The position numbers and the translations under genes were made by a program. The notes beneath the pieces were generated by a model that was not told where the DNA came from, made no database searches, and worked only from the letters and a program-made list of their open reading frames with translations. A stretch of 64,000 bases of DNA, taken from an uncultured Nitrososphaerota archaeon (GTDB taxonomy: Archaea > Asgardarchaeota > Njordarchaeia > Njordarchaeales > Njordarchaeaceae). Every line of letters starts with the position of its first letter. Position 1 is the first letter of the stretch. Of the stretch, positions 2,284 through 24,075 are shown in pieces. Where the stretch lies: positions 1-64,000 of the forward strand of contig CAZFGR010000009.1 in assembly GCA_964518475.1 (NCBI GenBank). The letters run 5' to 3'.

Positions 2284-5200
2284 TTATACTTTTATTCTAC
2301 GCTTTCTAACTATGGTTATGGTAATTACTAGTAAGACTGCTATAACTCCTACTGAGATAAGGATGTATAGGAAATTTGTTCTACCTTTGCTCTCTGTAAC
2401 AACGTATGAGTACTCTTCACTCACTGCCCAATTACCAGCATTATCACATGCATAAATCTTGAATCTTACTTTTGTATTCGCAGGTTGTGCAGGGATAGTA
2501 CCTTCATATAGTCCTGTTGCTGAATTATATGTCAGTGTTACGTTTAGCCATGAAGTTCCATTAAAGTAACTCAATATAGCTATCTTTACCCCTATCGGAT
2601 CACTAATATTAGCGTATACAGTCACATTATCTTTCTCGGTCGGATTTTGGGGATCCCAATAAACTCCTGTAATCGTTGGAGGCTCTGAATCGATAACGTA
2701 TTGATTTTCTTCAGTTATATAGCTATTTCCATAGATATCTTCTGCATAGATCCTAATCCTTAATACTGTTCCGCTTTCTTGAGCAGGAATGACACAGTAA
2801 TAAAGATGCGTTGATAGATCATAATTCATCGCTACCTTTACGTAGTTTGAGCCATTCGAATACAGTAGCGTAACATTTTTTAATGGGCTCCAATCAGACA
2901 CTAAGCAATAGACCTTGATTTCACGCCCCTCACTCAGGTTCATTGGTTGTCCATGAGTATCTAAATAAATAATCGCGATACTCGGTGCGCGAGAATCATT
3001 TTTGTTCCAGTTACCCCACATATCCGTTATATACAGGGTCAGAATAGCGCCTCTCAACCATTCAGCATTAACTATACTCAACTTACGTGAGCCATGATAA
3101 ATATTCGTTAGTTCTTCTGGACCTAGCAAATCACCCGCTAATGGCCCGGGATACCCTAACCATGGGAACTCTAGTTCAAGATAGGGTGGATCAAGTTGTC
3201 TCAGATATGGACCAAGGAAATGATAAAAACCGAAGTATCTAAGTTGATCCTTGCCCCCACTACTTCCCAGATAACTCTCATCTACAACTGTGTAATTAAA
3301 CTCTATTCTATAATGTGTTTCATTAACCCATTCTCTCTCGAGACTGTCTATAGCTATAGACGGCCCATTCGCATCCGTTATAGCTGGTATTTCTACTGGG
3401 TTCTCTAATGGGTAATAGTCATAATAACCAGGGCAAACCTCGTAAGGAATCGTTTCCTTATCCCAATCATCCCAATAATTCCCAACCGGAGGATCACGGA
3501 ATCCGTATAAGATTTGGGAAATATTTAGGTAGAATACTCCCGATTCCCATAATCCTCCGGCGCCGCCAGGCCCCGCTAGAGCATGTTTATCGTTTCCGAT
3601 AAAGTTGTTTTCATAGATATTACATCCGGTCAAATTTACGTATATTCCAATATGGTTGAAAGATATCTCGTTTTTCTGAATCCTCATGTAATAATTTGTA
3701 TATCCCCAACCAAAATCCATATAGATTCCGTAGGTATTATTCCTTATATAGTTCCCAACAATCCTCGTATCTGCCCCTAGATTTTCGAGATGATTCCAGT
3801 GCAGTACTCCCTGTTCTGTACATTTATAGATAAGAATACCCGCGAATGAGTGATTATAGATCTTGCTATTTAGTATTGTGTTGACTGGGCACTCCTCTAG
3901 ATAAATCCCGTTATGACCGGAGTATATTGTGCAGTTGTAGATTTTTATCATGCTGCTTTCCCAGCAGAAGATATTATTTCCATTCGTGATCCCTATCTCG
4001 CTATCTTTAATTGTCACGAAGTTACTACCTATCACTATAATGTTAGTGTAAGCATTATCCAGGACTCGGCACTGAGATATGACTATTTTCGCTGCTCCTC
4101 TACTAGGAATTTTCCGGTCTCTCCACATTTTGATTAGTGACCTTAGCCTTGCTCCAGCATCATATATATCTGGCGACTCTACGCATATTCCCACATTATT
4201 ATTAATCACAGTATTATTGAAGAAATCTACGTATGAAGAATTAACAATCGCCACGCCTATATCATTATTATAGATCAAGTTATTCCCTATTATGGAGCAA
4301 TCTCCATTATATAGTAGAATCCCAAAGTGATAGTTGTCGTGAATAACACTATTTAATATTACAGCATTCCTTGTCTCTATGCAGAGACCGCCTCTATCTA
4401 GTGGTCCAAACAATCCAGCTCCAGAGATCTCTGAATTCTCGATGAATATTCTGGATCCTGCTCTAGCCACAATATAGTATTTACCAGTATCACGCATTAT
4501 TCTCGAATTTATTACATACAATGAAGCTCCGGGGAGGACTTCTATTTTTATCGGCTTAACATTACCCCTAACAATGATACTTGAGTCTTTAATAACTAGT
4601 TCCGAGTTCACTATGAGGTCTCTGTCTAAGTATATAGTCTCACCATCAAATACGGTGTATTTATCGATCGTTAGAGGCTCTTTATAATCGAAATGTGGAC
4701 GAACCTCGATACTGGTTAATATAGATACTTTCGGGATTGTTATCGATACCTTATCCCCAATAATCTCGTATGGTAGCTCGATACCATCTATGTAGTCTTC
4801 ACTGTAGAGCCATATTGATAATTCCTTTCCCTGGAGCTGTGGAGGCAAAGTAAAGTTAAATTTGACATTATATGCTCTGATAACTTTATCTTTCTCAAAA
4901 TCGTAGTCATAATTAATTATGTGAAACACTAATCTTGTCCCATCAGGGTCAAGGAACCTATAAACATGGGCTCTTGGGGATAAATCGGTCTCTATATCTC
5001 TCGACACATAATTATTGATTATGCTTCTAAACCTCTCTAAAATAGACATTGTTTGGGAATCGTGCCTAGTGCTTTTTGCTCGCTTAATTAAGTAATCTCT
5101 CAGCGAAATATCCTTTATTGATACGATTAAACCAGATCCCACACTGCGTACTTGACCATCAAAATATGTTGAGAACTCCCTATTAACCGGTTCACCGTAT

Positions 5201-6879
5201 TCATTATACTTAGCGATGTCACCGATCCCGATAATTACTCCACCGTTCTCAACGTATTGTTGAAGCAAGTTGACTTGATCGTCGGTCAAGCATAGAGTTT
5301 CTGGCAAAATAATTGCTTTGTATTTTAGTAGTTTTGACAATGAAGGAGTTGCGTTCGTCCATATGTTGTCTCCAAAGAGAATCACATCGAAGGGAATATG
5401 TGAATCCGCTAGTAAGTAAAATGTCCCCTCAAAACCATCGTCGTTTCCTCGTTGCACGCTAGAAGCTAGGTTTAGTTTATCGAGATTTATAGCAGTTGCT
5501 GTTGAGAATACTAATCCTACTTCTCCAAATGGGGTATTATTAGTGAATAATTCTGGATTCTCTTGGACAAGTCTCACAAATTGACTAAAATGTGTCCTGT
5601 TTATGCATTCGCCTTTACCGTATTCCACTTGTGGTGTTACTGGTATTTGTCCTCCAAAAACTATTACTTCGGATAATGCTAGGTATTGCTCTTCAGGATC
5701 CATCGTTTTGTTCCATCCATTACTATACCACCCAGTAAAACCTGTTGCTCCAAGCGAACTCCAAGGATATATCCATAAGTTAAAGGTTTTGTTTAAACAG
5801 CGTAGAACCCATAAATCCTTGCTCGATGTGCGATTGGGATAGTCCTGGTTACCCGAAATCCAGCAATATTCCCAATTAACACCATCAACATCCAAGAGAA
5901 CGGGGAGATCAATTGGTGTAATCCCTATTCTCGTTGATACGTAGAAGTCTCTCCCGGTTTCTTCTTCCCATTGCTTAACATTTTTCATCAATATTCTATA
6001 AAACTCTATGAGAATCATTAAATTGAATTGCCTAAACTCTTCCCAAAGTGCTTCAGCGTACTTATCACCTTTAGGTCCATCAATCCCTGGATGCGCTATA
6101 ACCGTATTACCAACAGCGACAGAATTATGGTGATATCCAAGATCTCTCAGATATTGTGTAAAATTAAATGTCGTGATATCACTGATATTGAATTTCTCCT
6201 TTAGCTCTGCGGCGCTATACTTCGAGGCTAGGTATTGATTGAACCTTTGCATAGTCTCTGGATCAAAACTACCATAATACATAAGACCGTCTCCACCGTC
6301 GAATTCTACGCCATCAAAACCAGCATCAAAGATGAACCTTAGAAACTCAATAAAGAATTCTTGCCAAGCACTTCTCCCTTCGTACCCTATGGTATATGGG
6401 AGATCCACGTAATAGGTCCCATTGAGATCCATGGGGGCTATATCCCGTATTGATAAGTTCCAGTGCTCTAGAAAGTTTTTCCTCTCACTTAAGCTACTGA
6501 AAGGCATATAGAGGACAACTTTCATCCCGACTCCGTGAAGCTCGTATAGTTTAGCTTTAGCTATTTCGAATTCTCCTTTATAATCAAGTCGGAAAAAGTC
6601 TCCAATTATCGTTACTGTGAATGGGTAATTAGTGAATTTTCCTGCTCCTCCAAACTCTAGTTGATGAAACATTGCACTATACGGTGGCTTTATAGAGTGG
6701 GTTCTTATCTGTATTTTAGGTAGTGAAGTAATGCAGGTCCGTGCATTAAGTTCCTTCCTCTTCATCGCTTCTGTAACTAAGTAGGAATTTTGTGCAAGAA
6801 GATGAGTGGGGCAACTCTGGAGAAGCAGGAGTGTAATGAGAAACGCAATTAAAGTTTTTCTCAATAATCGATTATACAT
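2284..6879 (-). CDS. Large membrane-anchored secreted protein: glycoside-hydrolase-like TIM barrel, GATase-like trimerisation domain, right-handed beta-helix (NosD/CASH), Ig-like domains, C-terminal TM
   Basis: Signal peptide; GFDGVEFDG; HIPFDVI...YKAIILP...YVENGG; many N-x-I-x-N-N-x-x-GI repeats; GNYWDDW; IYAxDxxGN Ig repeats; TM followed by KRRIKV. Confidence 0.7.
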   Translation of the reverse strand: MYNRLLRKTLIAFLITLLLLQSCPTHLLAQNSYLVTEAMKRKELNARTCITSLPKIQIRTHSIKPPYSAMFHQLEFGGAGKFTNYPFTVTIIGDFFRLDYKGEFEIAKAKLYELHGVGMKVVLYMPFSSLSERKNFLEHWNLSIRDIAPMDLNGTYYVDLPYTIGYEGRSAWQEFFIEFLRFIFDAGFDGVEFDGGDGLMYYGSFDPETMQRFNQYLASKYSAAELKEKFNISDITTFNFTQYLRDLGYHHNSVAVGNTVIAHPGIDGPKGDKYAEALWEEFRQFNLMILIEFYRILMKNVKQWEEETGRDFYVSTRIGITPIDLPVLLDVDGVNWEYCWISGNQDYPNRTSSKDLWVLRCLNKTFNLWIYPWSSLGATGFTGWYSNGWNKTMDPEEQYLALSEVIVFGGQIPVTPQVEYGKGECINRTHFSQFVRLVQENPELFTNNTPFGEVGLVFSTATAINLDKLNLASSVQRGNDDGFEGTFYLLADSHIPFDVILFGDNIWTNATPSLSKLLKYKAIILPETLCLTDDQVNLLQQYVENGGVIIGIGDIAKYNEYGEPVNREFSTYFDGQVRSVGSGLIVSIKDISLRDYLIKRAKSTRHDSQTMSILERFRSIINNYVSRDIETDLSPRAHVYRFLDPDGTRLVFHIINYDYDFEKDKVIRAYNVKFNFTLPPQLQGKELSIWLYSEDYIDGIELPYEIIGDKVSITIPKVSILTSIEVRPHFDYKEPLTIDKYTVFDGETIYLDRDLIVNSELVIKDSSIIVRGNVKPIKIEVLPGASLYVINSRIMRDTGKYYIVARAGSRIFIENSEISGAGLFGPLDRGGLCIETRNAVILNSVIHDNYHFGILLYNGDCSIIGNNLIYNNDIGVAIVNSSYVDFFNNTVINNNVGICVESPDIYDAGARLRSLIKMWRDRKIPSRGAAKIVISQCRVLDNAYTNIIVIGSNFVTIKDSEIGITNGNNIFCWESSMIKIYNCTIYSGHNGIYLEECPVNTILNSKIYNHSFAGILIYKCTEQGVLHWNHLENLGADTRIVGNYIRNNTYGIYMDFGWGYTNYYMRIQKNEISFNHIGIYVNLTGCNIYENNFIGNDKHALAGPGGAGGLWESGVFYLNISQILYGFRDPPVGNYWDDWDKETIPYEVCPGYYDYYPLENPVEIPAITDANGPSIAIDSLEREWVNETHYRIEFNYTVVDESYLGSSGGKDQLRYFGFYHFLGPYLRQLDPPYLELEFPWLGYPGPLAGDLLGPEELTNIYHGSRKLSIVNAEWLRGAILTLYITDMWGNWNKNDSRAPSIAIIYLDTHGQPMNLSEGREIKVYCLVSDWSPLKNVTLLYSNGSNYVKVAMNYDLSTHLYYCVIPAQESGTVLRIRIYAEDIYGNSYITEENQYVIDSEPPTITGVYWDPQNPTEKDNVTVYANISDPIGVKIAILSYFNGTSWLNVTLTYNSATGLYEGTIPAQPANTKVRFKIYACDNAGNWAVSEEYSYVVTESKGRTNFLYILISVGVIAVLLVITITIVRKRRIKV

Positions 6880-8254: not shown

Positions 8255-11200
8255 TCATGTGGCCTCTTTTACGGGTCTCTTCTTTGATAAGTAGATCTTT
8301 ATATTAAGCGCCGCTAGCACTCCTATTAGAACTACAAGACCTATTAGATAAGGCGTTACTGATGGCTTCTGGATAATCTCCTCAGACACTATCTCGAAAT
8401 AGACTGCTGTTACACCCTTATTCCCAGCTGTGTCTATCGCCATAATTTCTAAACGATGTTTACCTTCTAATAATTCTGTCAAATCTATTATGTAGTAATT
8501 CCTACCAATTACCTGCCAGCTCCCATTATCAAGTCTTATCAATACCTTCACTACTGGGCTACGGTCACTTATCACCCATCTGATTATTACCGAATCATTA
8601 CTAAGAACGGTATTGTTTCTTAGGCCTATTATGCGAATTTCTGGTGGGGTATAGTCGATCGTAATCACTACCAATGTAGATCCGATATTACCTGCTTTAT
8701 CAATCGCTAGAAGTTCGATTATGTATCTTCCCTCAGAGAGATTACCTAATACATATTCATTACTCCCCGTTACATTAATCCAAGAACTACCGTTTATTCT
8801 CAGGAGAATTGATGATAAACTTTTGTCGTAGCATGACCATTTAATGATAATTAAGCTTTGATTTGTATACGTGTTGTTTCTGGGCGATAATATCTCAACA
8901 CGCGGAATCTCTGTGTCAATAAAGAAAATAACATGTTTAGTTACTCTATTGCCAGCTTTATCAATTGCAATAATTTCTAGAAAATGAGAACCATCAGATA
9001 ATCCGGATAAGGAAATGTTTCCATCTAGCAAGATCCATGCTTCTCCGTCTATTCTAAGCCAGACTTCCTTAAGCCCGCTTAGAGAATCTTTACATACCCA
9101 CTCTATTCTAATCGTAGACGCATTATAGTAACTACTATTTATTGGTGTTAAGATATCTAAACTCGGGGCCTTCGTATCAATATAGACTATAACCTGTGCT
9201 ATGTCTTGATTCCCAGCTCTATCATAAGCTACTAGGGTTATTTCATATATTCCATCTGAAAGCTCTATTGTGTAACTTGTTACGTTCTCATCAGTTATAG
9301 TAACTATTACAGTATCATTCATCGCAATTGTAATGTTTTTGAGATTCTGCTCTGTTAATCTCCATTCGATCTCAACTCTTGACGCGTTTAAGTAGGTTCC
9401 ATTAGCTGGCGTTACTATATCTATCTCAGGCTCCACGGTATCGATTATGAAAACTATTTTAATCTCGTTCCTATTCATGGCTTTATCGTAACCAATAATC
9501 CTTACTACGTGTTCGCCCTCGCTTAAATTCTCTAGAAGTAGACTAGTGTTCGAGCCAACGTTATATCGTGTGGTATTATCTACTATTATCTCGAAATGAT
9601 CAATATGATCCTCGCTGTAACTCCAGCTTATGTTGACCTCGCTTGTCGCTAAATAACTATTGTTAGTGGGACTTATGATCATGATTTCGGGGGGTACGTA
9701 ATCAATTATGATGTAGATACTGGAAATATTCACATTACCAGCGTGATCAATTGCTTTTACACAAATAATATGCTGACCATAAGAGAGTTTCTCCGCAGTA
9801 TATGATGTATTAGAACCTACATTAATCCATGAGCCATTATCTATACTGAGCTCGTAGTGATGAATTCCCGAATATTCATCAGTGCCACTCCACCTAATAG
9901 TTATCGACGTCTCATTAGTGATCGTGTTATTTAGTGGTTGAGTAATAGTTACTTTTGGTATCTCTTCATCAACGGTTACTAAAATCATTGTTTCTTTAGC
10001 TAGTCCTGAAACTGGTACTACTCGGATAGTTATGTACCAAGATCCATTGCTGAGAAGCAAATCGTGGTTCCTAGTACTTGCATTCAATGTACACTTTAGC
10101 AGATTGTTTAAGTATATTTCAAAGTATGATGGGACTAATCCAAAGATGTCCCAACGCAGTGTAACGAGTTTCTGCGCAAATACGGAGTTATTCTCAGGAT
10201 AAGTAACCCAAATCTCTGGAACTGGGTCAATGATTCTTAGACCATAAGAAGAGGAAACAAAGATTTCACTCACTACATCATTGTCGTTATCCATTATGGA
10301 CGCGTAGGAACTGTGTAGCGATTCCCCATACGTATTAGTTATGGTTAGATTTTCTATCAGCAAAGCTACGCTTCCTCTTTCGAAGATTATTGCTATCTGA
10401 TAATCGTTTCCTCCTTTCCAGTTAACTACGAATCCGTCGGTAATGGGGTTAGAGAAAGAGCGCTGGTTAATGATTTCGAGCGTTGATGCATTTAACAAAG
10501 AGACTCCATTACTTGAGACTACAGCAATTACGCCTGAGGCTTGGTAATGTGGGTAAATTCTTACTATTTTTCCTTGGTTAAGGCTTGTTGTTGAAACGCT
10601 GGATCTGGCATAAATAATGCTTATATCGCTTAAACTGGTACCTCCGAGAATCTCTGGATTATTATCTCCGTTAATATCTGCTAAGGAGACAGCAGTTACT
10701 TCTCCATTCCCTACCTTTAAAGATGCTTCTATGCTTCCGTCAGGAGATAACACTATTAATGAGCCATTATTAAGCCCAGCAAATATCTCGACTACACTAT
10801 CACCGTCATCATCACCAGTAACTAGTGCTGTAACATTTACCCCTATTAGTAACAATTTTTGGAAACCAGTAGAGTTTATGATCGCTATACTACTTGATGT
10901 TCCCACTATAATTTCTTTACCAGTATCTTGCAATACATCAGCGATAGTCATGACTTGGGACGGACTAGAAAGCGTGATTTGCCAAATTTTTTGACTCGGG
11001 TATCGGTAGGATAAGATAGTACCGTTGGCTAAGCCAATTAAGTATTCATAAATATTATCCCCATCAATGTCGTCTCCGAACAAGTAAGTTATTGGATTCC
11101 CTAAATGGATTAATGTGATATCAGTTAGATCGCTTTCACTTACCAATAAGTCACCGCTAGGAGCTGCAAGAACGTATTCTATTAAGCCATCGTTATCCAA

Positions 11201-12529
11201 GTCATTAATGAGATGATAGCTACTATTGAAGCCAACTAACAACGTTTTTTCAAGAGTTCCGGAACTCTCTAAGATACCCAAGTAAGGATTTCCATAATAA
11301 CTAAAAACGCATTCGTCGAGCCCGTCTGAATCATAATCAGTCGTTACAAGTTGGTTTGCGACTTGGCTAAATTGCCATAGGGTTACTAGATCTGTTTCTA
11401 GGGCTATGATTATCTCGTTAGTAGCTACTATGAATTCCTTTTGCAAATCAGTATCGAGTTGGCATGTTACTATTTTCGTGATAGGTTTGGCTAAGGAAAT
11501 ACTGTTCACTATCGAGAAATTCGAATCGAGTAGGTATACATAGCCATTCAATGTTCCGACAATAATCTCGTTTTGACCATTGTTATCTATATCGCTTACA
11601 AAGACTTGGCTGATCTCTTCATTTAGAGAAAGCCTCCTTATTAAGTGACCGTCACTACTCGCTAATACGTATAAATCCCCAAGTTGTGTACCACAAAGAA
11701 TTTCTTCTCCTGCATCACTTGTAACATTGCCAGTACTAATCTGAGAGATTGGCTCATTAATGTAGTAGCTCCATAGATCTAATCCATTTTTAACCACTAA
11801 AACTGTTCCACTCATCGAAGCCAGAACTACTTCGCTAAACCCATCGTAGTCTATATCCGAGCTGTAAAGAAGAGTTATGTTCAGTGAATACTGTTTTTTC
11901 CAGAGAACCTTATCATAGTCAAGCATGACTATGGTGTTATTAGCTAAAAGGATAGCTACTTCTAAAGCACCATCGTTATCAAGATTAGCTTCTGAAAAAG
12001 AAAGAATCTTAGTATTAAAGGTTATGTTACGTAATACTTCACCATTCGAGGCATTAATATATAATAGGTTTCCATTCAAGTCACTAGCAACAATCTCTTC
12101 GACACCATCATTATTTATGTCAAAACATCTTATCTCTTTGATTTCCCCACTGAACGTTCTCCAGAGAACCTTATTATCAAACCGCATTGCTGAGACAATT
12201 TTATCGGTTCCTAAAATAATTATATTACCAGAAGTCGCTATACTGGAAATTCTCTTTGCCGGTCCGATAAGCCAATTAACGGATATCGAGCCATTGTAGA
12301 GATCTATAGTGTTGTTCCGACCCTGTACGCTACTCAAACTAGCACTTTTTGGAATTAATTGTTGCGTGGATACATTCTCGTTGGAATAATTGGTTAAGAG
12401 TTTTTCCCTCTCAACAATCTTAAGTCCTTGTTTGCTACTCCAAGTACTGTGATCATTAGAAAAGATAGCCACGCTACTTATTAAGATAAGAGCACAGAAA
12501 AGCATAGATATGAACCATTTTCTTGACAC
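8255..12529 (-). CDS. FG-GAP/VCBS beta-propeller plus seven Ig-like repeats, C-terminally anchored adhesin-like surface protein
   Basis: About 14 DxDxDG-type repeats (DINNDG, DIDYDG, DYDSDG, DLDNDG etc.); 7 repeats, most with D..P...I..P.N.T...W...A.D.AGN; C-terminal TM and basic tail; probable GTG start at 12529 after GGAGGAGGG. Confidence 0.8.
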   Translation of the reverse strand: MSRKWFISMLFCALILISSVAIFSNDHSTWSSKQGLKIVEREKLLTNYSNENVSTQQLIPKSASLSSVQGRNNTIDLYNGSISVNWLIGPAKRISSIATSGNIIILGTDKIVSAMRFDNKVLWRTFSGEIKEIRCFDINNDGVEEIVASDLNGNLLYINASNGEVLRNITFNTKILSFSEANLDNDGALEVAILLANNTIVMLDYDKVLWKKQYSLNITLLYSSDIDYDGFSEVVLASMSGTVLVVKNGLDLWSYYINEPISQISTGNVTSDAGEEILCGTQLGDLYVLASSDGHLIRRLSLNEEISQVFVSDIDNNGQNEIIVGTLNGYVYLLDSNFSIVNSISLAKPITKIVTCQLDTDLQKEFIVATNEIIIALETDLVTLWQFSQVANQLVTTDYDSDGLDECVFSYYGNPYLGILESSGTLEKTLLVGFNSSYHLINDLDNDGLIEYVLAAPSGDLLVSESDLTDITLIHLGNPITYLFGDDIDGDNIYEYLIGLANGTILSYRYPSQKIWQITLSSPSQVMTIADVLQDTGKEIIVGTSSSIAIINSTGFQKLLLIGVNVTALVTGDDDGDSVVEIFAGLNNGSLIVLSPDGSIEASLKVGNGEVTAVSLADINGDNNPEILGGTSLSDISIIYARSSVSTTSLNQGKIVRIYPHYQASGVIAVVSSNGVSLLNASTLEIINQRSFSNPITDGFVVNWKGGNDYQIAIIFERGSVALLIENLTITNTYGESLHSSYASIMDNDNDVVSEIFVSSSYGLRIIDPVPEIWVTYPENNSVFAQKLVTLRWDIFGLVPSYFEIYLNNLLKCTLNASTRNHDLLLSNGSWYITIRVVPVSGLAKETMILVTVDEEIPKVTITQPLNNTITNETSITIRWSGTDEYSGIHHYELSIDNGSWINVGSNTSYTAEKLSYGQHIICVKAIDHAGNVNISSIYIIIDYVPPEIMIISPTNNSYLATSEVNISWSYSEDHIDHFEIIVDNTTRYNVGSNTSLLLENLSEGEHVVRIIGYDKAMNRNEIKIVFIIDTVEPEIDIVTPANGTYLNASRVEIEWRLTEQNLKNITIAMNDTVIVTITDENVTSYTIELSDGIYEITLVAYDRAGNQDIAQVIVYIDTKAPSLDILTPINSSYYNASTIRIEWVCKDSLSGLKEVWLRIDGEAWILLDGNISLSGLSDGSHFLEIIAIDKAGNRVTKHVIFFIDTEIPRVEILSPRNNTYTNQSLIIIKWSCYDKSLSSILLRINGSSWINVTGSNEYVLGNLSEGRYIIELLAIDKAGNIGSTLVVITIDYTPPEIRIIGLRNNTVLSNDSVIIRWVISDRSPVVKVLIRLDNGSWQVIGRNYYIIDLTELLEGKHRLEIMAIDTAGNKGVTAVYFEIVSEEIIQKPSVTPYLIGLVVLIGVLAALNIKIYLSKKRPVKEAT

Positions 12530-12531
12530 AA

Positions 12532-14151
12532 TTATCCCTCCTCCACTTTCCAACGCTTTAGTATGTACGTTCTAACGATCGGTATGAGAAGAATTATTGA
12601 AAACAAGGAGAGCACTCCAATAGTTAGTGCAAAAGAAGAGGCTAATCTTGGGGAGAGATACACTCTTATTTTATAGATATCTGATAAGACCCTATCTTCT
12701 TGCGTCCAAGAAACCTTGAGATCCAATGTAGCATAGCCCGTTGGGGCATTCTCAGCTATGTCTATAGAGAATGTTACCGTGAACTCCTCATTAGCAGATA
12801 CCTTACCGATATAGGTTATTACCTCTCCTTTAATTATTGTTCCTCCCATAAGTTGGAGATACACTCCCTCAGCATCGACCCTAGCTACGTTTTTCATTGT
12901 TATTTTGAGATTAACTCCTCTTGCTCCAATTCTTAATATCTGTGGATCAATACTCACCACCTTGAATCTTGCCTTTTCTTTCACAAGAATAGGTATTGCG
13001 AAGAAATTGTAACCTCCTCTAAATGTAGCGTTAAGTCCAAGATTATACATTCCAGGACTCGCTTCCTCCCGTACGTTAATGTAAAAAGTAACCTGAGTAT
13101 AGCTACCAGGCATCATCGTGCCGATCGAGAATTTCGTTGAACCCACATAACTTTCTTCTATTTCTTCGGGCAGGATCAACTCGATATTGACATCTTCCAG
13201 GAATTTAGATGTTGGGTTCGCGAGAGTGATTATTACTCTGACAAACTTGTCTCCTGGAAAAACTGTTGTAGGCGTGTATGATGATGCTACCAGAACTATA
13301 TGAGGCTTCTCCGTAGATATTACTGGAACCGCCTCGGCCACGGAATAGATTTGATTAGTTCTTTGATCCATGAAAGTCGCATTTACTACAAAGAGAATTG
13401 ATGAGACTGGTAATTCCGTGATATATAACTGAAACGTTACTGTTTCATTTTCACCCGCTTTGAGAATTCCTATATCATACCAATCATCACTCACTACGCT
13501 TACATATGGAGGATACCCGATTAGTGCCACAGTAACGTGTCTAGCAGGCGCAGTACCTATGTTTCTAACAATTACTGTGTAGTTATATATTCCCTCGTCA
13601 GATATGTAAAGCGGTGCAGCATGGATCTTTATCAATGGGTAACCAGTTACGGCTACGGGAACTATCAGTGTATACTTGACCTCGCTACCTAATGAATAAT
13701 ACTTCACTTCCATGGGTAAATCATATTCTGATAGGCTAGCATTGTCGAAGAGAGATATTCGAAAAGCGAATGCTAGGGAATAGTTTGGTGGAACTGTATC
13801 ATTGTAGTATTTCGTTGTTTCGTTACACTCTCCAATTTTCTTAATCGCCTCGAAATCTATAGTGACGTTCTCTATAAGATATTCACCCTCGTTCTTCAAA
13901 ATAACTATGAAAGCTGTTGTTCCTGCAGGGATATTGATTCCTGAGATATTAACCTCTGTAACCGCGTATACCCAGAAAGCATCATCCAGTACTAAACTCT
14001 TTTTATACCATAGCAATGATCGAGCCGAATTAGTTTTTGAATAGGCATAGACCACTTTTGGCTTACTTACGGCTATGCCAAAAAATTGTGATGCAGTCAA
14101 GATGAAAAGTATCAGAGCAACGATCCTAGTCCTTTGATTCATGAAGAACAC
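12532..14151 (-). CDS. COG1361-type S-layer family protein (CARDB/NEW3-like Ig domains)
   Basis: Signal peptide, repeated N.G...A..V...IG.L..GE...V.F modules, C-terminal TM; beside an ABC exporter. Confidence 0.75.
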   Translation of the reverse strand: MFFMNQRTRIVALILFILTASQFFGIAVSKPKVVYAYSKTNSARSLLWYKKSLVLDDAFWVYAVTEVNISGINIPAGTTAFIVILKNEGEYLIENVTIDFEAIKKIGECNETTKYYNDTVPPNYSLAFAFRISLFDNASLSEYDLPMEVKYYSLGSEVKYTLIVPVAVTGYPLIKIHAAPLYISDEGIYNYTVIVRNIGTAPARHVTVALIGYPPYVSVVSDDWYDIGILKAGENETVTFQLYITELPVSSILFVVNATFMDQRTNQIYSVAEAVPVISTEKPHIVLVASSYTPTTVFPGDKFVRVIITLANPTSKFLEDVNIELILPEEIEESYVGSTKFSIGTMMPGSYTQVTFYINVREEASPGMYNLGLNATFRGGYNFFAIPILVKEKARFKVVSIDPQILRIGARGVNLKITMKNVARVDAEGVYLQLMGGTIIKGEVITYIGKVSANEEFTVTFSIDIAENAPTGYATLDLKVSWTQEDRVLSDIYKIRVYLSPRLASSFALTIGVLSLFSIILLIPIVRTYILKRWKVEEG

Positions 14152-17955: not shown

Positions 17956-19284
17956 TCATTTTTCCTCTTCTTCCTCCTCTGAGCTCTCTATGGTATAATG
18001 CTCAATAATTGTTGGTTGGCTTATTCGCTTACGTATCATTCCTTCTATAATAATTGGTTGTAATGTACGTGCCAAAGCCACTGCTCTATCAAGCCTCGCT
18101 TCATTATTCGAATAAATTGTCAAAATTGTCTCACCCCTCTTCACGTATCTCCCACCCTTTTTAGGCAAATATACCCCCGCACCCTTGTCTTGAGGAGCCC
18201 CCGCGGCTCTAACTATAGCCATAATCGCTCTATTATCTATCGATACTACATATCCATCCGCCGGTGCCTCTATATCCTCCTTATATTGACCAACTGGAAT
18301 ACTATCAGATTTTACGTTCGGATCTCCTCCCTGTGCCTCTATGATCTCCTTCATCTTCTTTAAAGCTTTCCCAGAGAATAGAACCTCCTTCGCAGCATTT
18401 TCACCGCGTCCCAGGGGTACTCTCCCCGTCATCTCAAGCAATATTCCAGCTAATCCAGTGGCTTTCTCGACTAATGATGTCGATACAATGTTCCCTTCCA
18501 AAGTTGTAAGTGCTTCCTTAGCTTCTAAGGCTGGGCCAACTGCGTGACCTACTGGTTGATCTCCATAGGTAATTGCTGCTTCTATTTGTACTCCAAGTTT
18601 TCTTCCTAAGGAAACAAACATATGGGCAAGTTCAAGAGCCTTATCCATAGTCTCAGCTTTTGTTCCCTTTCCCTGAGGAATATCAACTACTAAGTACCTT
18701 ACTCCCATAGCTACCTTCTTAGCCATAATAGATGCTAGCATTTGTGAGATAGGATCTATAGATAATACACTTTCTACCTTTTTTATGAATAGGTCATCTG
18801 CTGGAGCTATATCAAGAGCCCCGCCCCATACTAGACATCCGTTAGTTTTGTTAACTACCTCTATAACTTCCTCTAATCTCAAGTCGACGGGAGCTAGAAC
18901 TTCCATTGTATCAGCGGTCCCTATGGTAGTTATGCTTCGAGAACTCGTCTTTGGAATCTTCAGCCCAGTAGCTGCTATTATTGGAACAATTAGCAAACTC
19001 ACTTTATTGCCCGGAACTCCTCCTATACTATGCTTATCCACAGTATCTGGACCGAAATCCGCTACTTTTCCAGTCTCCACCATAGCCATTGTTAAATCAG
19101 CGATCTCATCAAGAGAAAAGGGCATAAGTTCTTGTCTAACAATAAAAGCAGCTAATGCCACATCTGGTAAATTGCCTCTAAGAGCATCAATGATGATTTT
19201 TTTAAACTCGTCCTTTGTAAGCTTTTTGCCTCTTAGGCATTTCCTTATGAGATCTATTGAGTCAACATACTTCGTAGCTGACAA
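17956..19284 (-). CDS. AMP phosphorylase (thymidine phosphorylase family), lacking the usual N-terminal domain
   Basis: DKHSIGGVPGNK, KTSSR, GTADTMEVL, APADD, QPVG..VGPALEA, GAPQDKGAG. Confidence 0.9.
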   Translation of the reverse strand: MSATKYVDSIDLIRKCLRGKKLTKDEFKKIIIDALRGNLPDVALAAFIVRQELMPFSLDEIADLTMAMVETGKVADFGPDTVDKHSIGGVPGNKVSLLIVPIIAATGLKIPKTSSRSITTIGTADTMEVLAPVDLRLEEVIEVVNKTNGCLVWGGALDIAPADDLFIKKVESVLSIDPISQMLASIMAKKVAMGVRYLVVDIPQGKGTKAETMDKALELAHMFVSLGRKLGVQIEAAITYGDQPVGHAVGPALEAKEALTTLEGNIVSTSLVEKATGLAGILLEMTGRVPLGRGENAAKEVLFSGKALKKMKEIIEAQGGDPNVKSDSIPVGQYKEDIEAPADGYVVSIDNRAIMAIVRAAGAPQDKGAGVYLPKKGGRYVKRGETILTIYSNNEARLDRAVALARTLQPIIIEGMIRKRISQPTIIEHYTIESSEEEEEEK

Positions 19285-19344
19285 ATCACTTACCTCGCGT
19301 AATATAAATGACTTATAAAGCAGTTTAAAGAAAGGATTAATTGT

Positions 19345-21378
19345 TTATTTAATTGTTCTATGTTTTTTCCATCTTATTACTTGATAAGCATCTACCCCAA
19401 ATCTAGCTTTTATAAACTTCTCCAACCCCGTAACCAATTCTCTAGAATTTCGAGCTCTGCTAAGCATCTCGTCAATAGAGTCTTCAGTCACTATTTCGTA
19501 AACCCAAGCAAGCTTTCCCTTACCACCTCTCAAAACTCGTCCAACCCTTTGTATAAACTCCCGCTCCTGTTTTGATCCCCCAGCAATTATTGCTACTGAG
19601 GCATCCCCTACATCAACACCCTCCTCTGCCTTCTTGACAAGAACAATGCACCTTAAGTCCCCTCGAATAAATGCTTTTTGAATGGTTTCTTCTTTACCAG
19701 AGTCAACCTTTGATGTGAGAAGAGCTGTCGGGATTAATCCTTTTATTGCTCTCGCTATTTGTTCGGCGAATTTTATACTTCCCGAGAAGATGAATATTTT
19801 CTCATCCTTATGGAGCTTGACCAGTTCTTTTATAACATCAATTTTTACAGGATTATCTCTGGCTACTTCAATCATTTTATTAATTATTCTCCTTTTCTCT
19901 ATCTCATTACTTACTCTTTCAAGACGCTTCTCCAACTGAGCATATATCAATTTGTGCTCAACAGGCATGGGGACGAGGATTTTTCTTATCGCTACTGGAG
20001 CTAGAATCCCTCTTCTCACAAGGTCTTGGTAAAAGACTTTGTAAACTATCCCACCAGCTAGTCTAAACAAGAGAATTTCGTTACCATCTCTTCTTTTAGG
20101 TGTTGCTGAGAGAGCCATCCTATACGGTGCTCTTAGGAATAAAGCAACGTTCTTAAATGTTCTTGCTGGAATATGATGGGCCTCATCAAAAAAAACCATA
20201 GCGAACTTATCCGATAGTTTTTCAATATATTTGTAAGCTGATTGATAAGTCGCTACTGTTATCTCCCTTATCCGCTGTTCACCTCCACCAAATACTCCAA
20301 CGAACCCTCTAGGCACTCCCAAGTATTTCATGATTCTATCAACCCACTGGTTTAACAACCACTTATTAGGTACTAAAATCAAGGAAGGAAGTCTCTTCTC
20401 GGCAATAGCTGCGAGAGCAATAAATGTTTTACCTCCTCCGGTCGGCAGAACAATTGTGCCTCGTCCTCCCGCGTTAAGCCAGGCATTTAACGCCTCTTTC
20501 TGATGATCCATTAGGAATAGATTCCCAGCTTTTATATACTCAGAAAAACTGCTTTTCAGGGGAACTCCATAGTCTATTTCATAGTTTATATCATATGATC
20601 TGAGAAGCTTATCAACAACCGATAATGCGTAAGAAGGTAAGAAGATTCTTATATCTCCGGTGGGCAGTTTTTTAATTCTTCCCAGTTCTTGTCTCTTCGC
20701 TACAAGCTCTCCACTAATATCCTCAATATAATATTCGATGTTTCCAATTTCTAACAAGGAGTAGATCAAAGATTCTTTAACAAGGCTAGCGGGAATATCT
20801 ATTCTAATGAACTTTGGCGAGATAGGATATATCCTTATCTTTGGAGAGAACTCCTTAAGAATATCGGGGTTAATATACTTCTTAAGAAGTGCTGGTAATG
20901 CATCATAACTATTCCTATGAATGAACTCGACTATGTTTCTTATCGGAAAATAGATATAAACTACTTCTACTTCTCCAAAGCTTTTGAGAGTCTTCCTTTC
21001 CTTCACAATTCGAGGCTCAAAAACTTTGAAATTTTCACTCTTGATTATTTGATAAGGATCAATGTTCACGGGCAAAATTTTTAACCCATTATTCGCCATC
21101 TCCAAGCTCTTTACTTCCTTTTTTAGTTCATCTATTATCGCCTCTAATTGCTCAGCATATATAGCGTCAATATTTCTGAGATAATGAACTAATTCCTCGG
21201 CTACACTCATATTAGGGAATATTCGCCAATTAATATTCCATGTTTTCTCGTCAGGATCCCAAGAAGCAAATTTTTTGAGAAATTCTGATAGTTCCTTGAT
21301 TCTTGTCCAAGATAACTCTCTCGAAGACTGAATAACCTTGCTCCCTATGCGAATTTTCTGGACAGGCATTTTACTCAC
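19345..21378 (-). CDS. xpb: XPB/Rad25-like SF2 DNA helicase
   Basis: LPTGGGKT, TYQS, DEAHH, LSATPKRRDG, EGVD, QRVGRVLR, YEIVTEDS. Confidence 0.85.
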   Translation of the reverse strand: MSKMPVQKIRIGSKVIQSSRELSWTRIKELSEFLKKFASWDPDEKTWNINWRIFPNMSVAEELVHYLRNIDAIYAEQLEAIIDELKKEVKSLEMANNGLKILPVNIDPYQIIKSENFKVFEPRIVKERKTLKSFGEVEVVYIYFPIRNIVEFIHRNSYDALPALLKKYINPDILKEFSPKIRIYPISPKFIRIDIPASLVKESLIYSLLEIGNIEYYIEDISGELVAKRQELGRIKKLPTGDIRIFLPSYALSVVDKLLRSYDINYEIDYGVPLKSSFSEYIKAGNLFLMDHQKEALNAWLNAGGRGTIVLPTGGGKTFIALAAIAEKRLPSLILVPNKWLLNQWVDRIMKYLGVPRGFVGVFGGGEQRIREITVATYQSAYKYIEKLSDKFAMVFFDEAHHIPARTFKNVALFLRAPYRMALSATPKRRDGNEILLFRLAGGIVYKVFYQDLVRRGILAPVAIRKILVPMPVEHKLIYAQLEKRLERVSNEIEKRRIINKMIEVARDNPVKIDVIKELVKLHKDEKIFIFSGSIKFAEQIARAIKGLIPTALLTSKVDSGKEETIQKAFIRGDLRCIVLVKKAEEGVDVGDASVAIIAGGSKQEREFIQRVGRVLRGGKGKLAWVYEIVTEDSIDEMLSRARNSRELVTGLEKFIKARFGVDAYQVIRWKKHRTIK

Positions 21379-21420
21379 TTGTTACTTATTCGCGTTAATG
21401 ATAAGAGCGTATTACCAGTT

Positions 21421-22998
21421 TTAAGAAGTCTTAATAGTTTCCCTCTCTATTATTCTTGCAAACCGTTTTCTAAGAGAGACAGGCACGCTCTTAGAATCTA
21501 CTAAGTACTTCTTTAAAACATCGAGAGAATCTCTATCACTTTGCTTAGATAACTCGTACACTATGCTCTCTATAAGCATAGTTAATGATTCAATAATCTC
21601 TTTGCGGTCCCGAGAAAACTCAGCAATTCTTCCTAATATTTCCCCTAATTCCTCTATGGATAGATAATTCCAAAAAAAGCTCAATACTTCGATCAAGCTT
21701 TTCAAAATAGCTGATCTCGGATCTTTAACAGCCTTTTTCAAAATCTTCCTTACAAAATCTTTTCCCACCTCTTCTCTCTTATTAAGCAGTGATAAAAGAG
21801 CTAATCTAGCAGCATTAGCATATTTACTAGCTAATAAGGCAATCACTGATCTCTTATACTCATCACCTCTTAACTCATCTAGTATCTCTAGTATACCGGC
21901 TACTGCTAATTTTCTAACCGAACTTCTTTTATCATAACATAATCTCCACAGTATCTCTATAACTTCTCTATGATTCCTCACTATCTTAGAAGCGGCTAGA
22001 GCTGCTAATTCCCGAATCCTATAATACTTACTCCTACTCAGTTTCTTGAGAAGATCAACTCTGATGAAGCCCTCTCTCTTTAATAAGGTCTCTAATAGAT
22101 CAGAAGCTTCGACAAATACACGATCACCATGGATACGTGTAGCTCGAATTATTGATGCTAAGCAAAGATCATAGTACTTCTCTGGATTTCCCACCATTTT
22201 AATAGTCCAGAAAACAGCCGCTGCCTCCAGATGATCTACGGTCACCATAGCGCCTCTTAAGAGAATCCTTTGAAAACGTTCCTCAGAGAAGAAGCTTCTG
22301 ATTAACTGAACGATTTGAGAACGAATATCCCGACTAGTTATGTAAAGTTTATACAGCCCCGCTGCAGTAGCTAAGAGGGTTTCTGAATAACGCAATAATT
22401 TCACTTTATCAACTATTAGTACTCTCGATAACATTTCCAGAGAATTTTTGATACCAATAAAATCTGATAATTCAGCTATCGCGCGAATATACCACTTATA
22501 CGCAGATTCCGGCAAATTCTTACCTAATGTTTCTAAGATCACTATGATTTGTTTAGAGGAAAGTACAGGAGTTAAAGCGGGAATCACTTTAGCTAGAATA
22601 GGAGACATGTTCCTATTTTCCAGTAAATTCTGCACATAAGCCCATACTTCCTTCGAGTCCCTCCCATTCAACATACTCCTAATATACTCAACAGCATCAG
22701 AGAAGTCTTCGTTCTCTATTAAACAATCAGCCATTGAGAAGACTATTTGTAAAGGCATATCCCCTGATAAGGAAACAATAGCATCGATCAAATTCCTTTT
22801 TTCTGATTGCTTAGCATTTTTAAGAAGCTTACACAGGACGTTCCCAAGTTCTGAACCATACTTCCTAAAAAGCTCAGGAATTACGCGATGATCCATACTG
22901 GCTAATTCTTCGGCAATTTTAGTTAACGACTCACCTTTCTTCAAAGCCTCCAAGGCTTTTTTCTTAAAAAGCATATAATGTTGTGAAATATTTTCCAT
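21421..22998 (-). CDS. Alpha-solenoid (HEAT-repeat) protein
   Basis: Helical throughout; SKYYRIRELAA, DKRSSVRKLAV and DPRSAILK repeats. Confidence 0.65.
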   Translation of the reverse strand: MENISQHYMLFKKKALEALKKGESLTKIAEELASMDHRVIPELFRKYGSELGNVLCKLLKNAKQSEKRNLIDAIVSLSGDMPLQIVFSMADCLIENEDFSDAVEYIRSMLNGRDSKEVWAYVQNLLENRNMSPILAKVIPALTPVLSSKQIIVILETLGKNLPESAYKWYIRAIAELSDFIGIKNSLEMLSRVLIVDKVKLLRYSETLLATAAGLYKLYITSRDIRSQIVQLIRSFFSEERFQRILLRGAMVTVDHLEAAAVFWTIKMVGNPEKYYDLCLASIIRATRIHGDRVFVEASDLLETLLKREGFIRVDLLKKLSRSKYYRIRELAALAASKIVRNHREVIEILWRLCYDKRSSVRKLAVAGILEILDELRGDEYKRSVIALLASKYANAARLALLSLLNKREEVGKDFVRKILKKAVKDPRSAILKSLIEVLSFFWNYLSIEELGEILGRIAEFSRDRKEIIESLTMLIESIVYELSKQSDRDSLDVLKKYLVDSKSVPVSLRKRFARIIERETIKTS

Positions 22999-23025
22999 TA
23001 ATACAACACCAAAAAAGACCGAGAA

Positions 23026-24075
23026 CTACCTGGAATACGCGTCACGCAAAACTCGTAAATACTCCAGCACTAACTTCTTCTCTAGCTCTCCACTCTTTAG
23101 CTTATTCATAACCTTTGCAATAACGTATCTAGGGAATACGAACGTTACTGTTGGGTCAGAGAAGAGGTAATACTTATCCTCGTGCTTTTCCACTATCTCG
23201 TAAGGTCTTAATCGTTCCTCTATAATTTGATCCCACCCATGAGTACCAGCTTCGTCTTCACTAATAATACCCCTACTCCTAAACTCTGAGAGAACCTTGT
23301 AAGTATTCACATCGGCTAGGATACTTGGTAGAATATTTTTATCTTGGATCCATTCCCTATCATAATATCTCTTGACGAATTCGCTCCATCTCTCCACATA
23401 CCCAGGAATGTTTTTAGCTATTTGATCAAAGGCTTTTGGTCTTCTTCGAATAAAGGCCACATCCCTTAACAAGTAAACACGTTCGATAAGTGCTTTCTCG
23501 TCATAATGAGTTAGAAGCACATTAAGCGCTTCCAATGTATAGACATAAGAAGCGATAACATCACGACCTACTCCTGGGTGAATCCCTCTCAGTCGCCTCA
23601 CAATCTCGTCTAGAGTTAATATGCCTTCCTCAACCATTAGATCTAGTAAAGTTCTCGCCTCCTCATCCATGAAAACATCCGCCAGTCTCTGCTCCATTGT
23701 TAAGGATGGATAATTGGTGATCCAGTTCAGCGCCTCAGCCCAACTCTCTTCCGAATAGAGCATTTCTTCGCCCATTTTGAAAATTTTCAACGCTAAACGA
23801 ACAAGACCGCCTCGATAATCATTAGGATTCTCGCCAGATTTCAGAATAACACCAAAAATTTCATTGAGTTCTACTCCAGAGTAATAGGCTAAGATATTTC
23901 GCCCACCCGAGGAAATGTTATAGAACCCTTCTCTTCTTTCTTCCTCTTCCAGAAAAAGCCCACCGAAAACGTTCACTAGTTCATCAGGTGATAGACTTAA
24001 CTCTACTGGATAAGTACCTAATAGCATCGGACCTCTACGAGGATCCCACCTCATCCTAAAGATACCTTCGGGCAA
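23026..24075 (-). CDS. Longin/uDENN-like N-terminal domain plus tandem winged-helix domains (NPRL2-like architecture)
   Basis: N-terminal beta-WDPRRGP-beta-YP motif and longin-type strand/helix pattern; two wHTH-like segments (ARTLLDLMVEEGILTLDEI; TYKVLSEFRSRGII). Confidence 0.55.
   Translation of the reverse strand: MPEGIFRMRWDPRRGPMLLGTYPVELSLSPDELVNVFGGLFLEEEERREGFYNISSGGRNILAYYSGVELNEIFGVILKSGENPNDYRGGLVRLALKIFKMGEEMLYSEESWAEALNWITNYPSLTMEQRLADVFMDEEARTLLDLMVEEGILTLDEIVRRLRGIHPGVGRDVIASYVYTLEALNVLLTHYDEKALIERVYLLRDVAFIRRRPKAFDQIAKNIPGYVERWSEFVKRYYDREWIQDKNILPSILADVNTYKVLSEFRSRGIISEDEAGTHGWDQIIEERLRPYEIVEKHEDKYYLFSDPTVTFVFPRYVIAKVMNKLKSGELEKKLVLEYLRVLRDAYSR

Follow-up and report, generated by a model that had tools for sequence, protein, structure and literature searches.

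NPRL2 and NPRL3 (Npr2 and Npr3 in yeast) are the longin subunits of GATOR1/SEACIT, a GTPase-activating protein (GAP) for RagA/Gtr1. In these proteins, as in ESCRT-II, the winged helices are protein-binding modules. Here we analyse a protein of the same domain order, which is encoded in a 64,000-nucleotide stretch (the window) of contig CAZFGR010000009.1, from the genome of an uncultured Njordarchaeales archaeon. The protein, P0001, is the window's member of a family of ~350 residues that consists of a longin domain and two winged helices and that we call LwH. Its gene is the first of four closely spaced genes on the minus strand, followed by genes for a HEAT-like α-solenoid (HEAT525), an XPB-family helicase and an AMP phosphorylase. 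A first-pass annotation of the window took the four for a possible nutrient-sensing module. Our comparison points to a different reading as the best explanation of the whole, in which LwH is probably a regulator or adaptor that docks on a small GTPase, and the helicase and AMP phosphorylase are probably unrelated to it.

The WD and GP motifs are specific to the GAP-type longins C9orf72, SMCR8, FLCN and NPRL2 and to some Asgard longins (PMC12290439). NPRL2-like longin proteins in Asgard archaea have already been reported by Liu et al. (bioRxiv 10.1101/2020.10.19.343400), and Asgard longins with a GP motif and arginine finger have been described as well (PMC12290439). As far as the available portions of these two accounts go, the NPRL2-like architecture occurs mainly in Thor and in a few Loki metagenome-assembled genomes (MAGs). 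LwH shares with the published proteins its phylum, its longin type and a proposed link to GTPase regulation, and P0001 is probably a member or sister of the published NPRL2-like/GP-motif groups. While the family itself is thus already published, new here are the Njord-specific uncoupling of LwH from its GTPase gene, the predicted binding of this unlinked pair, and the solenoid genes that lie beside both partners.

Fold, motifs and spread of the LwH protein

The LwH gene occupies 23026..24075 on the minus strand, between the HEAT525 gene on one side and a divergent HTH-type gene on the other. Its open reading frame (ORF) encodes a protein of 349 residues with a TTG start and the N-terminus (L/M)PEGIFRMRWDPRRGPMLLGTYP. 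Since most of 13 close homologues of P0001 begin with MPEGIF or MPKNIF, we take the TTG start to be correct and a database entry that starts at Met8, from a downstream ATG, to be too short.

An AlphaFold2 (AF2) model of P0001, built from an alignment of 14 homologues, reached a pLDDT of 88.3 and a pTM of 0.87. In this model, a longin domain (residues 1-124, 23704..24075, minus strand; β-β-α-β-β-β-α by DSSP) is followed by a first winged helix (residues 125-213, 23437..23703, minus strand), a helical linker, a second winged helix (residues 256-314, 23134..23310, minus strand; H-E-H-H-E-E-E) and two C-terminal helices. The two wHTH-like segments that had been suspected from the sequence are therefore both present in the model, and on re-alignment they match ArsR/MecI/Phr-type regulators with Z-scores of 9.0-9.1. 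For the first winged helix, Z is 9.0 to the wHTH domains of SrnR and MecI over residues 125-208; the second has weak ArsR/MarR-type wHTH profile matches. Both are acidic (pI 5.1 and 4.8, net charge -4 and -5, respectively), and their putative recognition helices are hydrophobic or acidic. No DENN lobes follow the longin domain in the model, since residues 125-349 consist of the two winged helices and helical linkers, and matches to DENND1A/B are confined to residues 1-124 (Z 10.4-10.9).

The longin domain aligns best with GATOR1 chain 9o5a_H (VIA-align; Z 12.0, rmsd 3.0 Å, 120 residues aligned). The search output does not name the subunit, and we infer from the chain length of 370 residues that it is NPRL2. 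Other longin domains follow, namely VAMP7 (Z 11.6), an AP-3 chain (11.3), DENND1B (10.9) and ζ-COP (9.8). When the whole model was searched against the PDB with Foldseek, chains of GATOR1, SEAC and CPLANE came out on top. The GATOR1/SEAC chains of NPRL2/NPRL3 size aligned over 290-306 columns with a probability of 0.91-0.97, at E-values of only 1.7e-3 to 9e-3 and TM-scores of 0.22-0.24; no row of the whole-model search reached E≤1e-3, and the clear scores came from per-domain re-alignment only. A shape search of the ESM Atlas with the whole model returned three clusters of Asgard ('Promethearchaeota') hypothetical proteins (TM 0.92, 0.75 and 0.68), and the nearest eukaryotic rows were Inturned (TM 0.44) and NPR2 (PF06218; TM 0.32, over residues 1-219 only).

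At the level of sequence, P0001 has no match in Pfam (E≤1) or NCBIfam. PF06218 (NPR2) matches nothing in the genome at E≤1 and none of 51 family members at E≤0.1. When PDB sequences were searched with a profile of the 14 close homologues, the only match was that of residues 111-155 (~23611-23745) to the N-terminal helices of the restriction enzyme PvuII, with E 7.2e-5 to an engineered tandem chain and 0.23 to native chains. As the duplicated chain inflates the score and the match is gone with a broader family profile, we treat it as a chance helical match. We conclude that P0001 is a genuine Asgard NPRL2-like longin/winged-helix protein that stands outside the NPR2 sequence family. As regards fold and order of domains, the first-pass call of an NPRL2-type longin with winged helices was right: the protein starts with a longin domain, and GATOR1/SEAC chains head the Foldseek search of 23026..24075.

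The loop between strands 1 and 2 (W10-D11-P12-R13-R14-G15-P16; 24028..24048, minus strand) stands out by its conservation and by its place at the core of the predicted GTPase interface described below. W10-D11 and G15-P16 match the WD/GP motif of GAP-type longins as defined in PMC12290439. The 14 close homologues all share W10, D11, P12, R13, G15 and R47, and nearly all of them have P16. Across the family, W10 is kept in 87%, D11 in 75%, G15 in 91% and P23 in 96% of members, and P16 in 25%. A histidine in helix α1 is kept in 76% of the family; P0001 has Leu40 at this position.

A word-indexed search found the 14 close relatives of P0001, one of which is labelled Candidatus Njordarchaeia. Six-frame searches detected full-length matches (query residues 1-347) in 32 of 41 related genomes; these represent most of the families sampled from the phylum, and a single genome has as many as five paralogues. 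An exhaustive profile search gave 169 cluster representatives (50% identity) at E≤1e-3, mostly of 340-400 residues. In a number of Asgard proteins (P0072, P0045, P0051, P0054, P0083, P0089 and P0094), the LwH module is joined to SIR2 and TPR or makes up the last ~350 residues of a protein of 1300-2500 residues with surface-type domains (Laminin_G_3, CarboxypepD_reg and bMG3).

Predicted docking on a longin-fused Arf-like GTPase

Outside the order, LwH directly adjoins a gene for a GTPase of ~280 residues, with a longin and an Arf/Roc/Ras-type domain, in 11 genomes from 7 families. The best Pfam match of this GTPase is Arf (7e-24), then Roc and Ras, and it has an N-terminal extension. In seven of the genomes (G019, G029, G039, G028, G038, G034 and G020) the GTPase gene lies downstream of LwH in the same direction, with gaps of 11-44 nt. 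It is located upstream of LwH in G023 and G033, and the two genes are convergent in G031 and divergent in G024. The available portions of the published accounts do not describe LwH beside a longin-fused Arf-like GTPase or beside the giant surface proteins discussed below.

In the window's genome (G000), the GTPase found beside LwH elsewhere has one full-length orthologue, which is encoded on contig C1 (G000:C1:182160-183002). Its AF2 model (pLDDT 90.3) shows a longin domain (residues 1-93), a helix and a Ras-superfamily G domain (residues 124-278). The nucleotide-binding motifs are intact, with a GxGGVGKT P-loop, the switch-I threonine in PT, AGQ and NKQD. Foldseek did not separate Arf, Rho and Ras for this protein, and its highest identities are to Arf1.

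We predicted the complex of P0001 with the C1 GTPase, GTP and Mg in three runs, next to three controls; the small molecules were not scored. The pair scored an ipSAE of 0.82, 0.82 and 0.81, compared with 0.00 for the best control. The runs contained 36-37 confident contacts, agreed in at least 94% of contacts and had a partner pLDDT of at least 89. One of the genome's small GTPases, which the first-pass annotation had named for complex prediction, thus passes as a predicted binder. On the LwH side, the predicted interface comprises residues 12-16, 30, 34-35, 37-39, 41-42, 45 and 47, that is, PRRGP, helix α1 and R47. On the GTPase side, it comprises residues 122-125, 156-162, 173-175 and 185-193, which immediately precede the P-loop strand, follow the switch-I threonine, or belong to the interswitch strands and the switch-II helix.

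On the basis of this model, LwH would be a cytoplasmic protein of ~350 residues whose longin domain docks, via the WDPRRGP loop and helix α1, on the switch I/interswitch/switch II face of the GTPase. Towards the longin-fused Arf-like GTPase it would play the part of a regulator or adaptor whose action depends on the nucleotide state. As in NPRL2/3 or ESCRT-II, the winged helices would be protein-protein modules rather than DNA-binding domains. HEAT525 may be a lineage-specific accessory partner, and the XPB-like helicase and the AMP phosphorylase are probably mere passengers with no functional relation to LwH. We consider it reasonably likely that LwH binds the C1 GTPase. The complex model supports binding, without telling a GAP from a guanine nucleotide exchange factor (GEF) or an effector. 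If the two proteins do bind, an effector or adaptor role would stand about an even chance, a GAP-type role is possible but distinctly less likely, and a GEF-type role would be less likely again.

Several points weigh against this reading. The calibration of the mark by which the complex was judged, in which 58 of 80 solved complexes and 2 of 110 mismatched pairs came up to it, contained no ligands or user alignments and therefore applies only roughly here. Longin-GTPase complexes have been solved, and the high score may in part reflect likeness to these rather than the affinity of this pair. The LwH and GTPase genes are unlinked in this order, which means that the neighbourhood argument is borrowed from distant relatives. 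Over 76 full-length relatives, R13 is an arginine in 46% (with lysine in a further 17%, hence R or K in 63%) and R47 in 14%; the family as a whole conserves no arginine, which leaves a GATOR1-like arginine-finger GAP unsupported. The Z-score of the NPRL2 longin ties within 1 unit with the VAMP7 and AP-3 longins, and DENND1B is reported as tied too. The sequence models of NPR2, NPR3 and FLCN all remained without a match. Lastly, a quick maximum-likelihood tree unites the Njord LwH copies without exception in a clade of their own on a long branch (1.62; SH-aLRT 100). The function of Njord LwH may therefore have drifted, and one sign of this is Leu40 in place of the conserved histidine.

In the rest of the quick tree, GTPase-linked LwH copies and copies linked to giant proteins are interspersed. 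Contexts have hence switched often, and P0001 is not assignable by descent to a 'GTPase-linked' subfamily. We rejected the idea that P0001 is a specific orthologue of the GTPase-adjacent copies: its best matches outside the order are all GTPase-adjacent, yet it falls into the separate Njord clade.

The giant proteins suggest another partner. Of the other LwH paralogues examined, most show translational coupling to an ORF of 750 to >1360 residues with Ig-like, Laminin_G, pentaxin or macroglobulin domains. These include a second Njord paralogue in G005, G007, G012 and G013, and about 15 loci have LwH adjacent to a giant protein. The main function of P0001 could accordingly be that of a cytoplasmic adaptor which binds the tail of a giant surface protein, with the GTPase as a second, downstream partner or none at all, and the LwH modules fused to the C-terminus of proteins of 1300-2500 residues would fit such a role. 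A 1432-residue FG-GAP/Ig adhesin is encoded at 8255-12553 of the window, 10.5 kb from P0001, and the gene of a 1433-residue homologue starts 2.6 kb from LwH in locus L005. Against this, P0001 adjoins no giant surface-protein gene (the nearest being this adhesin); other operons lie in between, and the orientation of the adhesin gene relative to LwH varies by species. We regard this as unlikely to be the main role of P0001, though it is compatible with a GTPase-docking regulator or adaptor.

How does LwH compare with the eukaryotic longin systems? As in NPRL2/NPRL3, the N-terminal longin domain is followed by a C-terminal half that contains winged helices, in the same domain order. The G-P at the start of strand 2 (PMC12290439) and the predicted docking on a small GTPase are further likenesses. 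In contrast to NPRL2/NPRL3, the global TM-score is only 0.23-0.32, and neither the protein nor the genome has a match to the NPR2 sequence model. Where NPRL2 and NPRL3 form a heterodimer, only one LwH copy, with no second paralogue, was found in this 91%-complete genome. NPRL2 has the Arg78 finger, and LwH lacks an arginine that is conserved family-wide. The candidate GTPase is Arf-like with a longin fused to its N-terminus, unlike the Rag GTPases with their C-terminal roadblock domain. IML1/DEPDC5 (PF12257) was not found in the genome, in a search that gave no match in any control genome either.

LwH also resembles C9orf72-SMCR8 and FLCN-FNIP in carrying W-D and G-P before strand 2, with W33-D34 and G38-P39 as the C9orf72 counterparts (PMC12290439), and it shares with C9orf72-SMCR8 an Arf-like GTPase as candidate target. 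In contrast to both of these complexes, LwH has two winged helices in place of a DENN module, and no partner longin-DENN protein was identified. The third comparison is with the AP/COPI coats, which combine longin subunits (σ/μ adaptins, ζ/δ-COP), large solenoid subunits and Arf1. Here, the likeness lies in the longin domain (Z 11.3 to AP-3 and 9.8 to ζ-COP), in the Arf-like GTPase, and in the solenoid genes that adjoin both LwH and the GTPase. However, no appendage domains are present, and the LwH winged helices are without a counterpart among coat subunits.

Alpha-solenoid genes beside both predicted partners

The gene next to LwH, HEAT525 (P0002; 21421..22998, minus strand), encodes 525 residues. 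The protein appears HEAT-like, as the first-pass annotation had called it, though below the Pfam thresholds: HEAT_2 matches with E 5.6e-5 and 23.8 bits (cut-off 27.7), and HEAT with 16.3 bits (cut-off 23.5). Its nearest ESM Atlas feature clusters are HEAT_2/HEAT families (0.93-0.94). Matches to HEAT525 were found only in the genus, at 27-38% identity and as fragments in G004, G005 and G006. Judged from these sequences, HEAT525 is a fast-evolving, genus-restricted protein.

On contig C1, outside the window, a second solenoid gene encoding 642 residues (HEAT642) lies 44 nt upstream of the longin-fused GTPase gene (G000:C1:180187-183002 for the pair; L051:4188-7003, of which HEAT642 takes up 4188-6116 on the plus strand). 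Its ESM Atlas model is a HEAT solenoid, with TM-scores of 0.47-0.63 to GCN1, importin-5 and the coatomer β/γ trunks. The coatomer trunks account for 0.47-0.56 of this range; GCN1 and importin score as well or better, so that the likeness to coats is generic. The HEAT642-GTPase adjacency is kept by 6 of the 7 genus genomes despite the low identity of the solenoid, which is 27-30% except in the closest relative, G002 (53%). Between HEAT525 and HEAT642 there is no detectable sequence similarity (BLASTP E 1.3), and we do not claim that they are paralogues.

Both predicted partners, LwH and the GTPase, therefore have an adjoining α-solenoid gene in this genus, which provides independent, if indirect, support for the idea of a longin combined with a solenoid. 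That LwH, the longin-fused GTPase, HEAT525 and HEAT642 form one complex in the genus, a counterpart of the eukaryotic AP/COPI- or GATOR-type assemblies, is a step further that we hold to be rather improbable.

Gene order and the remaining genes of the cluster

The minus strand carries the four ORFs as annotated, separated by spacers of 27, 42 and 60 nt; besides LwH and HEAT525 they are the helicase P0003 (19345..21378, 677 residues) and the AMP phosphorylase P0004 (17956..19284, 442 residues). The tight spacing is the sole evidence for co-transcription of the four genes. A T6 run lies in the 27-nt spacer (22999-23025), directly 3' of the LwH stop codon. The 60-nt spacer (19285-19344), 5' of the AMP phosphorylase start, contains the TATA-like boxes CTTTATAAG and TTTATATT (TTTATA type) as well as GAGGT. 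These signals suggest at least partly separate transcription, and the AMP phosphorylase is probably expressed independently.

Across relatives, the longin-HEAT-helicase order is confined to one genus. It is intact in G001, and the HEAT gene has decayed in two species (G004 and G006), where it has shrunk to frames of 297 and 113 residues. In G005, a 284-residue HEAT525-like gene is convergent with LwH. Counting such remnants, LwH and HEAT525-type genes are neighbours in six genomes of the genus. Four genomes (G000, G001, G004 and G006) have the wider LwH-(HEAT)-helicase order, and G002, where a contig break intervenes, probably has it too. G000 and G002, its closest relative, are alone in having the AMP phosphorylase directly after the helicase; a search of four more species of the genus (G001, G004, G005 and G006) placed it on other contigs. 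In G001, a DDE_3 transposase and an HTH gene (L001:14844-15926) take the place that the AMP phosphorylase has behind the helicase in the window, and the transposase may explain the rearrangement. In the Njordarchaeia MAG of locus L003, LwH stands alone and adjoins an Nre gene.

In the sister genus, LwH heads a pair of genes for a SIS-domain isomerase and a sugar-phosphate nucleotidyltransferase. At L024:4439-9072 (G007) and L069 (G013), LwH, the SIS-domain (bact-PGI_C) gene, the NTP_transferase gene with hexapeptide repeats and the AMP phosphorylase gene are co-directional. The long helicase lies 5-11 kb from LwH, preceded by an HD/HD_assoc_2 protein, and the AMP phosphorylase is 2-7 kb away. 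The sister genus also has a 427-residue FG-GAP/BBS7/ITFG2-like propeller protein as the divergent neighbour of LwH (L023:15526-16809, plus strand, P0170; also L014 and L016). It has no obvious N-terminal signal peptide or membrane segment, and the window's genome contains weak matches only, the nearest elsewhere in the genome.

The four-gene cluster is thus a recent arrangement at the level of genus or species and not a conserved functional module. This bears on the proposal that the four genes are co-expressed, with a longin/solenoid complex and an AMP-consuming enzyme acting together as a proto-GATOR-like sensor of nutrients or energy. Besides the tight same-strand spacing and the six genus genomes with LwH-HEAT525-type neighbours, this proposal can draw on five further genomes of the order (G007, G008, G010, G011 and G013), in which LwH lies 0.4-6.6 kb from the AMP phosphorylase; they point the same way in G007 and G013 and are adjacent but divergent in G008. 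However, the genes in between vary, being HEAT and helicase here and SIS isomerase and NTP transferase in the sister genus, and G008 has none. The closeness is moreover part of a shuffled ~20-kb block that has also retained unrelated genes, namely an ABC ATPase, AP_endonuc_2-type TIM barrels, ERCC4 and FG-GAP proteins, and it therefore carries little weight as functional coupling. The helicase-AMP phosphorylase junction is found in two species only, HEAT525 has decayed in two others, and within the supposed unit a T6 run comes after LwH and a TATA-like box before the AMP phosphorylase. Outside the order, LwH lies beside GTPase or giant-protein genes and never beside an AMP phosphorylase in the loci examined. 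We give such a sensor little credence, and the AMP link drawn by the first-pass annotation is speculation.

The helicase itself invites a further reading, in which LwH and HEAT525 are accessory subunits of P0003 in a lineage-specific DNA repair or transcription complex, like XPB with p52/p8 or Bax1, and the winged helices touch DNA or the helicase N-terminal domain. P0003 contains ResIII, Helicase_C and ERCC3_RAD25_C domains (the latter with 34.2 bits, cut-off 27), and residues 259-644 align to Sulfolobus XPBII (6p4f, E 7.5e-63), so that its superfamily 2 (SF2) core is like that of archaeal XPB. Unlike archaeal XPB with Bax1, it has an extra N-terminal region of ~260 residues, and Bax1 is encoded elsewhere. 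This N-terminal region of ~258-270 residues is unassigned, and its first 258 residues gave no sequence match in the PDB. The position of the RED motif reads KRRDG, and the region from motif III to lobe 2 (thumb) is ~24 residues shorter than in Sulfolobus XPBII. Against the XPB equivalog model, P0003 scores 186 bits, far below the cut-off of 610. Two short XPBs are also encoded in the genome, one of them, at G000:C28, followed by Bax1 (PF05626). Because Bax1 adjoins this short XPB and P0003 falls below the equivalog cut-off, P0003 is not the canonical XPB. The family assignment of the first-pass annotation stands, its reading as XPB proper does not, and by its sequence P0003 is a lineage-specific long XPB paralogue.

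A role of LwH beside this helicase would agree with the LwH-(HEAT)-helicase order in G000, G001, G004, G006 and probably G002, with the ~260-residue region as a possible docking site, with the presence, within a few kb, of Hjc, ERCC4 and SSB genes both in the window and in L001, and with weak TFIIE-α-type winged-helix matches in 5 of 51 family members. Yet the sister genus has its helicase at a distance of 5-11 kb, preceded by the HD-domain protein, and full-length matches to the long helicase occur only within the order, while LwH is phylum-wide. A second long copy, at G000:C7:14018-16057 and 47% identical to P0003, has no LwH or HEAT gene adjoining it, and the LwH winged helices are acidic. 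Such a complex appears hardly probable.

The remaining alternative, that P0001 is a DNA-binding transcription factor with the longin as a sensor of a ligand or GTPase, is the least probable of all: two wHTH folds with Z about 9 to ArsR/MecI/Phr-type regulators and weak HTH_20, HTH_5 and TrmB matches in a few family members speak for it, but both winged helices are acidic with hydrophobic or acidic putative recognition helices, only ~10% of family members give even weak HTH matches, and the winged helices of NPRL2/3 and ESCRT-II bind protein.

The fourth gene was correctly named as an AMP phosphorylase. P0004 scores 573.5 bits against TIGR03327, above the curated cut-off of 535, and in this it is like the Thermococcus-type enzyme, as it is in the presence of a form III RuBisCO in the genome. 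Unlike the Thermococcus-type enzyme, it matches profile positions 85-500 and is without the N-terminal ~84 profile residues. Homologues in the order are similarly short, with open frames of about 420-455 residues. The form III RuBisCO large-subunit gene (G000:C7:11845-13116) is one gene away from the second long helicase, the first helicase copy abuts the AMP phosphorylase, and the two enzymes belong to the same AMP-salvage route. We considered a link between the helicase and this pathway and set it aside as probably a coincidence: RuBisCO was found in one of five relatives searched, on a different contig and not adjoining the helicase.

A defence system of the Pbe/Dnd or another type was also rejected. 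PADLOC gave generic helicase-core matches only (PbeA, Cas3 and Dpd) and no partner genes; the PbeA models match P0003 with 156 bits over the core residues 286-633, and P0001, P0002 and P0004 have no match. The neighbouring P0005 gene (17209..17952, plus strand), included here for context only, has a weak OloA match in the same search (E 1.7e-4). It encodes a small HEAT-like protein of 247 residues with weak HEAT_2/HEAT/DUF7051 matches. The gene is convergent with that of the AMP phosphorylase and ends 3 nt from the latter's stop codon on the opposite strand. In L001 (G001), its homologue is located elsewhere in the region and does not adjoin the cluster.

For annotation, it follows that tight spacing does not equal an operon, and that the XPB-like helicase and AMP phosphorylase should not receive a 'nutrient-sensing' label. 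Asgard archaea encode dozens of small GTPases as well as longin and roadblock proteins. According to one study of the cultured strain MK-D1, GTPase genes do not as a rule share operons with longin genes (PMC10933270). Taken together, LwH and the longin-fused Arf-like GTPase, which are linked in many Asgard genomes, provide a concrete candidate pair. With its single LwH copy, the small genome studied here would be a handy place to test whether GAP-type longins predate eukaryotes, and it equally suits asking whether α-solenoid partners already belonged to such complexes.

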